Assembly: GCA_963708135.1 (NCBI GenBank)
Contig: OY970192.1
Coordinates: 3,168,001 to 3,232,000 of the forward strand
Direction: 5' to 3'
Source: an uncultured Gemmatimonadales bacterium
GTDB lineage: Bacteria; Gemmatimonadota; Gemmatimonadetes; Longimicrobiales; RSA9
DNA: 64,000 bases
Position 1 is the stretch's first letter. Each line of letters starts with the position of its first letter. Shown piece by piece: positions 21,156-23,147 of this stretch. The translations under genes and the position numbers were made by a program. The notes under the pieces are model-generated. The model did no database searches and had not been told where the DNA came from. It saw nothing but the letters and a program-made list of their open reading frames with translations.

Positions 21156-21533
21156 GCCCGGCGCACAAAAAAGTCGAACCGTCGGCCCCGGCCGCCACCA
21201 TCCGGCGATTGGATGCGCCCGGCGCACAAGAGAGCCGAACGGTCGGCCCCGGCCACCACCATCCGGCGATTGGATGCGCCCGGCGCACACAACAGCCGAA
21301 CCGTCGGCCCCGGCCGCCACCATCCGGCGATTGGATGCGCCCGGCGCACAAGAGAGCCGAACGGTCGGCCCCGGCCACCACCATCTGGCGATTGGATGCG
21401 CCCGGCGCACACAACAGCCGAACCGTCGGCCCCGGCCGCCACCATCCGGCGATCGGATGCGCCCGGCGCACACAACAGCCGAACCGTCGCCCCCGGCCGC
21501 CACCATCCGGCGATCGGATGCGCCCGGCGCACA
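21156..21533. repeat. 61-bp tandem array, six units plus a partial unit (left array)
   Basis: GCCCGGCGCACA recurs at 21156, 21217, 21278, 21339, 21400, 21461 and 21522. Confidence 0.95.
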
Positions 21534-21594
21534 TGGGATGGAGCGGGGCACGACGTGACCGTTCGCCGCGGCCCTTCCGGGAGGACTGATTACG

Positions 21595-22548
21595 ATGAGC
21601 GAAGCGGGCAATACCGGTCCGAGCCGGGATCTCGAGGACCGCGTGGCGGATGTCGCCGCCCGGCAGCACGGACTCGTCACGCGGGGGCAGCTCGTCACGG
21701 CGGGTCTGTCGTCGTCGGCCGTGGGCCGGCGACTTCGGGCGGGGCGGCTGCGGCAAATCCACCGGGGCGTCTACCGGCTCGGCCCGCTCACGGCGCCATT
21801 CGCGGCGGAGATGGCCGCAGTCCTGGCCTGTGGCTCCGAGTCCGTCGTGAGCCATCTCAGCGCCGCCGGGATCTGGGTTCCCGCGGCCGCCGAGCCGAGG
21901 CCGCGGCAACCCTCGCGAGTGGAGATCACGACGACGAGCGAGAAAGGGAGGCGTCGCCCCGGAATCCTCGTCCACCATGTGGCGCGGCTCGACCCGGACG
22001 AGCGGACGACCTGGCAGCAGATCCCGATCACCACGCCGGCGCGCACGCTGATCGATCTGGCCGGCGTAGTCGGGAGCCGGGAGCTCGAGGCGGCGTTGGC
22101 GCGGGCCGAGCGGGAAGGCCTCGTCGCCCATGGCGAGCTGCTGCGCCATCTCGAACGGCACCCGCGTCGTCCCGGAAGCGGCGTGCTGCGCGCACTGCTG
22201 GAGGCGGACGGCGACCCGGCGCTCAGCCGCTCGGCGGCCGAGGAGGAGTTTCTCGCTCTCACCATAAAGGCGCGGCTGCCGCGGCCTGCCACCAATGTCC
22301 GGATCGGCGCCTACGAGGTCGATTTCCTCTGGCGAACGAAGGGCATCGCCGTGGAGATCGACGGCTTCCGGTACCACTCGTCGCGGCCTCGCTTCGAGGG
22401 CGACCGTCGCAAGGATGCCTGGCTCCTGGCCCATGGGATCACGGTCGTGCGGCTGTCCTGGCGCCAGATCACGGAAGACGCGCTGGCGACGGCCGTTCAG
22501 ATCGCCCTCGCCCTGCACCGTGCGAGGGGCCCCGCCGCCCAACGGTGA
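21595..22548 (+). CDS. AbiEi-antitoxin-like plus DUF559 (Vsr-like) endonuclease-domain protein
   Basis: [16 protein letters not shown] (AbiEi wHTH); [47 protein letters not shown]. Confidence 0.88.
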
Positions 22549-22560
22549 TGGCACGCCGGG

Positions 22561-22695
22561 CCGCGGGCGCGCAAGTCTGGCCGCGCGCCGTGCCCCGGCG
22601 AGTGTGCGGCGCGACGTGTCCGCCGCGGGCGCGCAAGTCTGGCCGCGCGCCGTGCCCCGGCGAGTGTGCGGCGCGACGTGTCCGCCGCGGGCGCG
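22561..22695. repeat. 62-bp tandem repeat, two units plus a partial unit
   Basis: CCGCGGGCGCG at 22561, 22623 and 22685; the units are identical. Confidence 0.9.
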
Positions 22696-22759
22696 TCTGC
22701 AATCCGCCGCTCGAGGACATCGAAGTCCCTGAGACCACCGAATCCGGGTCGGGTCCGGC

Positions 22760-23147
22760 GTACACAACCGCCGAACCGACCCGGCCCGGGGCGACGACCT
22801 GGCTTCCTTGTGCGCCAGCCGCACACAACCGCCGAACGGACCCGGCCGCGGGCGACGACCTGGCTTCTTTGTGCGCCAGCCGCACACAACCGCCGAACGG
22901 ACCCGGCCCGACGCGACGACCTGGCTCTCTTGTGCGCCAGCCGCACACAACGCCGAACGCGCCCGGCCCGACGCGACGACCTGGCTCTCTTGTGCGCCAG
23001 CCGCACACAACCGCCGAACGGACCCGGCCCCGGGCGACGACCTGGCTTCTTTGTGCGCCAGCCGCACACAACCGCCGAACATACCCGGCCGCGGGCGACG
23101 ACCTGGCTCTCTTGTGCGCCAGCCGCACACAACCGCCGAACGGACCC
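22760..23147. repeat. 60-61-bp tandem array, six units plus a partial unit (right array)
   Basis: G(C/T)ACACAAC unit starts at 22760, 22821, 22882, 22943, 23003, 23064 and 23125. Confidence 0.95.

Follow-up and report, generated by a model that had tools for sequence, protein, structure and literature searches.

A nuclease gene enclosed by tandem arrays

In the window, the whole 64,000-nucleotide stretch of DNA that was analysed, a gene for a 317-residue protein lies between two tandem arrays of units of about 61 bp, with a divergent lacZ and a hydrolase gene as its neighbours. The features of the locus, in window coordinates, are as follows.

21008..21055, + strand: promoter-like motif (GCCATGG at 21020-21026, GCCCC at 21031-21035, -10-like hexamer at 21047-21052)
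21084..21167, + strand: 34-bp x2.5 local duplication, between the promoter motif and the first array
21156..21533, + strand: upstream array, six 61-bp family-A units with two inverted half-sites each
21595..22548, + strand: AbiEi-nuclease open reading frame, 317 aa
22560..22695, + strand: perfect 62-bp duplication, of the same period as the units, with no scored family-A member
22753..23147, + strand: downstream array, six 60-61-bp family-A units and a partial seventh
23148..23719, + strand: 5'-truncated alpha/beta hydrolase gene, fused to the downstream array

TRF placed the upstream array at 21156-21533 (61 bp x6.2, 92% matches), the duplication at 22560-22695 (62 bp x2.2, 100% matches) and the downstream array at 22762-23155 (61 bp x6.5, 89% matches), and together with the reading frame at 21595-22548 this bears out the layout that a first-pass annotation had drawn. 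Aligned almost without gaps, 12 units from the two arrays are invariant in 29/61 columns and form one family in direct orientation, which ruled out an inverted orientation of the two arrays. Each array is homogeneous internally and the two have diverged from one another; units within an array are 89–92% alike over their full length, with no CRISPR-type alternation of constant repeat and unique spacer. The core of the unit is a 17-bp palindrome with the ideal form TGTGCGCC-N-GGCGCACA, of which the genome holds 15 copies with at most one mismatch, versus none in a third-order Markov simulation. The 34-bp duplication has no clear family elsewhere in the genome.

The seventh downstream unit breaks off at 23147, after its first half-site, where the array runs into the hydrolase gene. 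This gene lacks ~94 N-terminal codons: it aligns from residue 95 of a 275-residue homologue (61%), homologues among the matches listed are mostly about 270–290 residues long, and the missing N-terminal part has no match at the window locus. Homogenised arrays on both sides of the gene are peculiar to the window locus; the general unit is a three-unit element of ~180 bp.

Other features in and beside the window are recorded here. The lacZ carries a 33-bp x3.3 in-frame repeat after its signal peptide (20743-20852), which codes for a Pro-rich linker and lies 300 bp away from the upstream array; lacZ is followed by a PIN-domain gene (16565-16978) whose short upstream gap may hold its antitoxin. 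Several degenerate 23-bp arrays at 52849-55703 are related to arrays of the same genome at 1833047, 4286986 and 5165296. At the end of the window, AGAGTGGG-based repeats (window 62675-64000 and contig 3232050-3234523), including a 225-bp x11 array, flank a comEA-like gene (contig 3231046-3231906). A supposed comEA beside an orphan array was dropped, because its translation resembles Tex.

An AbiEi-type module joined to a predicted Vsr-like nuclease

Pfam assigns residues 15–62 of the protein to AbiEi_4 (E 1e-12) and residues 235–306 to DUF559 (E 2e-6), with MTES_1575 and AbiEi_1 below the cut-off. A structure model built with a 61-sequence alignment reached a pLDDT of 89 (a single-sequence prediction, at pLDDT 43, was set aside) and divides into a predicted AbiEi module at residues 9–209, composed of a wHTH and a C-terminal domain, and a predicted Vsr/EDxHD-like nuclease at residues 211–312. 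The first part matches AbiEi 6y8q (Z 12.4 over 184 residues) and Rv2827c 1zel (Z 9.1), which are also the top Foldseek matches of the model and indicate that the AbiEi two-domain fold is present. The second matches 3hrl (Z 13.4), the homing endonuclease I-Bth0305I 3r3p (Z 13.2) and Vsr 1cw0 (Z 11.1). Invariant across the 61 sequences are S213, E216, N234, D243, E254, D256, G257, H261 and D270. By model and conservation, the nuclease domain is predicted to be an intact one of the Vsr/I-Bth0305I type, joined to an AbiEi-type DNA-binding module, in keeping with the AbiEi-DUF559 assignment made at first pass.

The first reading had also seen no AbiEii toxin gene adjacent to the nuclease, and this holds beyond the lacZ and hydrolase neighbours: AbiEii (PF08843) was not found anywhere in the genome, which is 97.7% complete. 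Nor does the genome have a match to a Y1 HUH transposase or RAYT (PF01797).

Paralogues and their repeat families

The genome, a single contig of 5.45 Mb at 72% GC, encodes seven paralogues of the protein, with gene boundaries set by a simple purpose-made gene caller; one related-locus search of the genome contigs returned 3 loci only. Repeat-family matrices were seeded from the paralogue flanks, and shuffled matrices gave 0–2 matches. The families are:

Family A (the window gene): 27 sites at 6 loci, including one coding singleton; 25/27 intergenic
Family B: 62 sites at 28 loci; 62/62 intergenic
Family C/D (two paralogues): 60 sites at 31 loci; 59/60 intergenic
Family E: 54 sites at 26 loci; 51/54 intergenic
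Family F: 38 sites at 20 loci; 38/38 intergenic

The flanks of six of the seven paralogues carry ~180-bp six-site elements of the paralogue's own family, with a 61–62-bp period and 6–31 loci per family, and 93–100% of the sites in the five families are intergenic. The first-pass annotation had supposed that the repeat spreads; dispersed copies do occur, the paralogues pairing with dispersed families of their own. Each family lies near its own paralogue or paralogues only, and while nearness to the seeding gene is given by construction, the absence of cross-pairing is not. The seventh paralogue, a single case, has an internal stop, flanks that are unique in the genome and no repeat family.

An unseeded scan for four half-sites found a doublet at 61/62 bp in 79 of 1689 intergenic regions, versus 3–9 regions for each of four other spacings; the seeded families account for 66 of the 79. 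Non-simple repeats, again counted unseeded, were in excess at periods 61 and 62 (19 and 43 segments, versus 0–15 at the other periods between 45 and 79). The geometry of the element is fixed, with 18-bp arms, a CG-N5-CG centre, the 61–62-bp period and usually three units in ~180 bp, and its ends are sharp, enclosing three units and six half-sites. Two-centre elements of family B have the same span in 24/24 cases and a median identity of 86%, their half-sites being conserved and their spacers variable. Family A has three gene-less arrays, of 3, 8 and 6 units, and in five A-like three-unit elements the half-sites score best with family A in 17/30 cases.

Arrays gather around these genes and elements. 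Among intergenic regions of 600–1200 bp, arrays are present in 7/7 beside family genes versus 35/194 elsewhere, a length-matched comparison. Other tandem arrays occur beside elements in 13/37 regions versus 33/425 elsewhere in one length class and in 7/8 versus 12/77 in another, and in regions of 600–1200 bp in 19/28 versus 18/163. At contig 229816-231150, a family-E element has been amplified four times within a 265-bp tandem, and the 77-bp tandem that comes after it lacks the element.

We detected no target-site duplication at the elements (4.80 versus 4.76 for the null), no clean empty site in the genome itself and no excision joints in one low-depth DNA sequencing run. With neither target-site duplication nor empty site, we infer movement of the elements from their dispersal only.

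Homologues in other genomes

The nuclease gene was detected in 23/36 genomes of the same taxonomic family. We examined 75 loci and used the 70 that were near full-length, from 24 genomes, leaving out five partial ones. Tandem arrays flank 35/52 homologues with complete 700-bp flanks versus 1/24 hydrolase controls, whose flanks are mostly coding, and palindrome doublets at 61/62 bp accompany 38/70 homologues versus 1–5/70 at other spacings and 1/58 control loci. Homologues are thus enriched for flanking repeats, as a repeat-associated nuclease would lead one to expect. No doublet passed the threshold at 32/70 homologues, including the two nearest by tree (L005 and L006). A flank scan for palindromes only gave no enrichment (14/140 versus 13/140 segments), and the four-half-site test was used in its place. 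In an independent further set, of which 63/82 loci had enough flank and 80 of the 82 are metagenomic, doublets peak at 60–63 bp (9, 8, 11 and 5 of 63, versus 0–4 elsewhere).

Half-site similarity falls as protein distance rises (Mantel rho -0.19, 0/5000 permutations, 34 loci); four loci were left out of this test, three by eye for simple repeats or wrong register and one as frameshifted. Half-sites of same-genome pairs are less alike (0.04) than those of close proteins from different genomes (0.13). Because linked DNA is co-inherited, some co-variation of repeat and clade is expected anyway. The proposal that repeat type co-varies with protein clade therefore holds in a limited form: the trend is weak, and linkage would account for part of it. 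The family-A core pattern occurs in 1/61 genomes, its own. A D-type pattern is present in G012, G032 and G035, as well as in one genome where no gene was detected; it has no match in G027 and G029, both of which have D-clade proteins. In sampled DNA, 800 kb from gene-positive genomes contained 2 doublets and 779 kb from gene-negative ones contained 0, numbers too small to decide.

A promoter motif shared with DNA-uptake genes

The promoter-like motif upstream of the first array has the full form GCCATGG-N4-GCCCC-N11 followed by a -10-like hexamer, and it scores 31.1 bits at the window locus with a matrix built without this genome. Judged by its sequence, it is a likely promoter with a predicted start near 21059, and the upstream array lies in the predicted 5' leader. 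GCCATGG occurs within 600 bp upstream of 35/64 family genes, versus 10.6% of 4264 control genes and 12% of divergent controls; the latter figure rejects the idea that it is merely the start of a divergent gene. Scored leave-one-genome-out, the full motif stands upstream in sense at 54/70 homologues, in antisense at 1 and downstream at 0, and 0/29 control loci exceed 14 bits.

Across the genome, the matrix built without it gives 61 matches above 18 bits, versus 1, 0, 0 and 0 with shuffled matrices. Fifty-eight of these are intergenic, 58 point at a same-strand gene, and nine lie 37–41 nt ahead of the start, a distance that would suit leaderless mRNAs. All seven paralogues carry the motif. A sigma-70 consensus scan found nothing. 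The top targets (20 scanned) include RecQ, SSB, YifB/ComM, a ComF-like protein, PilB/GspE, YraN, BamD and a pilin-like gene, together with IS91 and IS4 transposases, an integrase, Uma2, a four-helix bundle protein, an RHH protein, a sigma-54 activator, a CAAX protease and four genes without clear family; the gene immediately before comEC also has a motif site in front of it. No motif site was found for dprA, comEA or lexA, and that of recA is weak (11.7 bits), so the label of a competence promoter, drawn from gene content, would rest on a partial gene set.

Among the best 30 of 55 comM matches, comM carries the motif in 24/24 matches from the same taxonomic family and 0/6 from another, and it keeps the motif in 6/6 examined family genomes without a detected nuclease gene. 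Control of the motif by the nuclease itself was rejected on this ground, and the motif points to a host promoter, not a site of the nuclease's own. The shared competence-type promoter is an addition to what had been noticed at first pass.

Several further observations concern the same motif. It marks a regulon of about 50 genes, in which DNA uptake and processing genes stand with IS91 (4), IS4 and integrase genes and with several Uma2, four-helix-bundle and antitoxin-like genes, some of them named by eye from translations. At contig 3951703-3958243, a sigma-54 activator, a CAAX protease and exporter-like genes accompany three motif sites and three short peptides that by eye resemble double-glycine leader peptides, a possible competence-linked bacteriocin or pheromone cluster. 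An integron-like integrase (contig 3066828-3067859) has a motif site of 19.3 bits 31 nt before its called start, which suggests that cassette shuffling is tied to the same state as the motif genes. The second-best site, at 37.6 bits, precedes a 200-residue protein (contig 5045231-5045833) with no Pfam or NCBIfam match, a candidate for an unknown competence gene. There is a likeness between the promoter core and the 5-nt centres (CG-CYATN-CG) of several repeat families.

A model for the nuclease and its repeats

Our preferred reading, to which we give a probability of roughly 0.55, is that a competence-induced nuclease binds and cuts its own repeats and thereby spreads and amplifies them, a domesticated system of a third kind after RAYT and Ssn. 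The AbiEi module would bind the half-sites as double-stranded operators, and the nuclease domains would pair and nick or cut within the ~60-bp unit during competence, a state in which both incoming DNA and recombination proteins are available. As the cut is repaired, elements would be copied to new sites, units and neighbouring DNA duplicated in tandem and adjacent DNA sometimes deleted; at the window locus, amplification and homogenisation of the element would have produced the two six-unit arrays, and the hydrolase gene would have been left without its 5' end. Through the array in the leader, the protein probably also limits its own expression. Consistent with the reading are the predicted fold and catalytic residues, the five intergenic families, the doublet spacing, the putative promoter, the arrays beside elements, the broken paralogue with its unique flanks and the lack in the genome of any Y1 transposase that could account for the elements; against it stand the doublet-less homologues, the missing target-site duplication and empty site, the weak co-variation and the partial competence gene set. 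IS91-family transposases, which share the promoter, could also act on the elements.

Published binding sites match these dimensions and speak for the reading. The sites of Rv2827c are four 23-bp inverted repeats spaced by 13, 4 and 13 bp, a period of 63 bp by summing repeats and gaps versus 61–62 bp here, and AbiEi binds two inverted repeats with a 3-bp gap (excerpts of PMC7319586). For I-Bth0305I, a homodimer, the contacts extend over up to 60 bp of a pseudo-palindromic target (excerpts of PMC3239194).

The enzyme might instead cut its elements as single-stranded hairpins on incoming DNA and so tune integration, with spread as a by-product, a reading that we consider unlikely. Vsr-like folds recognise distorted DNA, the promoter is common to uptake genes, and complete elements form stable single-strand folds (z -1.7 to -9.5 against mononucleotide shuffles), on which account they may be recognised as hairpins. 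SsnA acts in this manner on NTS repeats (excerpts of PMC11893778). However, the repeat arms are only 48–78% Watson-Crick paired, with mismatches that show no clear wobble bias, which favours recognition of the duplex; single family-A units fold no better than shuffles in 7/8 tested stretches; the fixed spacing suits protein geometry on duplex DNA; and AbiEi-type domains bind duplex operators (excerpts of PMC7319586).

We give somewhat less credence to the idea that the repeats are binding sites only, autoregulatory operators and decoys of an AbiEi-type regulator, dispersed by another enzyme, for example an IS91-family transposase, or by general recombination. Operator-like geometry, a doublet between promoter and gene in 12/16 loci and four IS91-family transposase genes under the same promoter would suit such a regulator, as would the lack of a target-site duplication, since none is expected of HUH enzymes. 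Its nuclease residues are nevertheless invariant, and the elements lie downstream of genes too and at about 100 gene-less sites, in families that adjoin nuclease paralogues and are missing from the broken one.

The first-pass annotation had read the locus as a repeat-associated nuclease system, which the comparative evidence upholds in part; the other option it allowed, that transcripts of the arrays are cut into small RNAs which guide or partner the protein, fared poorly and strikes us as improbable. The upstream array does lie in the predicted leader, and weak terminator-like matches occur inside the arrays, but units so alike hold no variable guide segment, folding is weak and the arms poorly paired as given above, Rfam has no match in window 20900-23300, and the AbiEi fold binds DNA. 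A tRNA scan was blank. Most dispersed copies, moreover, have no motif nearby, the 61 motif sites and 111 element loci being in different places. Chance adjacency in a repeat-rich, 72% GC genome with 218 tandem clusters would fit the flat palindrome-only scan and is very improbable, contradicted already by the spacing-specific doublets with their controls and by one family per paralogue, and further by the length-matched array counts.

A fuller version of the competence-induced nuclease reading, which we advance tentatively and at a little under even odds, is that an operator-binding, antitoxin-derived module, fused to a homing-type nuclease, turned its own operator into a family of non-autonomous 180-bp mobile elements and became wired into a hitherto undescribed competence regulon. 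The protein would cut, copy and rearrange its sites at DNA uptake, a transposase-free propagation of repeats timed by natural transformation, with several orthogonal enzyme-repeat pairs in this one genome.

Relation to known systems

RAYT/REPIN systems resemble the locus in having cognate palindromic repeats on either side of the gene and, as doublets, scattered through extragenic DNA; a genome has several paralogues with a repeat group apiece, and tandem amplification occurs (excerpts of PMC3337134). Their enzyme is a Y1 HUH transposase, whereas here AbiEi is combined with a predicted PD-(D/E)xK Vsr-like domain. According to the same excerpts REPINs show many spacings and reach hundreds of copies (PMC3337134); here the spacing is fixed at 61–62 bp with six half-sites per element, and copies number tens. 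A near-perfect hairpin along the element characterises REPINs; here the arms are poorly paired (48–78%), although complete elements fold well. The Ssn/SRM system of Neisseria (SsnA-NTS) likewise has a nuclease gene flanked by cognate, genome-dispersed repeats and a link to transformation, but Ssn is a single GIY-YIG domain of ~94 residues that cuts ssDNA beside a 28-nt hairpin (excerpts of PMC11893778). The protein here has 317 residues and three domains, unlike Ssn includes a separate DNA-binding module, and has a shared promoter as its only link to competence. Since the enzyme differs, membership fails for both systems.

AbiEi/Rv2827c antitoxins of type IV AbiE share the fold of the N-terminal 200 residues and have inverted half-site arrays of similar period upstream of the gene (excerpts of PMC7319586). 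Type IV AbiE has an AbiEii toxin, however, and as none was found in the genome, membership fails here too; a nuclease is fused instead, and sites lie also downstream and genome-wide. The EDxHD homing endonuclease I-Bth0305I shares the nuclease fold, the E-D-x-H-D residues and the ~60-bp pseudo-palindromic scale (excerpts of PMC3239194), but such enzymes lie in or beside an intron or intein of a conserved target gene, whereas the gene here is free-standing and intergenic, outside any intron, intein or phage, with an AbiEi module in place of NUMOD. This gene sits among its putative sites, whereas an EDxHD homing endonuclease gene interrupts one.

In the literature searched, which includes few subscription papers, we found neither AbiEi-DUF559 proteins with cognate repeats nor the promoter motif described; excerpts of PMC3710099, PMC9879509 and PMC6504116 mention the domains, not this gene-repeat system. 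What is new is one repeat family per paralogue, a six-site element with operator geometry and a shared promoter. Repeat families specific to paralogues that carry a putative DNA-uptake promoter point to an undescribed enzyme-plus-repeat system that would act at DNA uptake.

If this is true, it would supply a substrate and a time of action for the very common, uncharacterised AbiEi-DUF559 family and add a third unrelated enzyme class to the logic of REP/RAYT and Ssn. The origin of dispersed palindromic repeats and local tandem duplications in genomes without RAYT would be explained. Because one genome has six enzyme-repeat pairs, their specificity can be tested directly, and long-site nucleases could come out of them. 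The promoter motif, to which many mobile genes are tied, gives a first way into regulated DNA uptake for this group.
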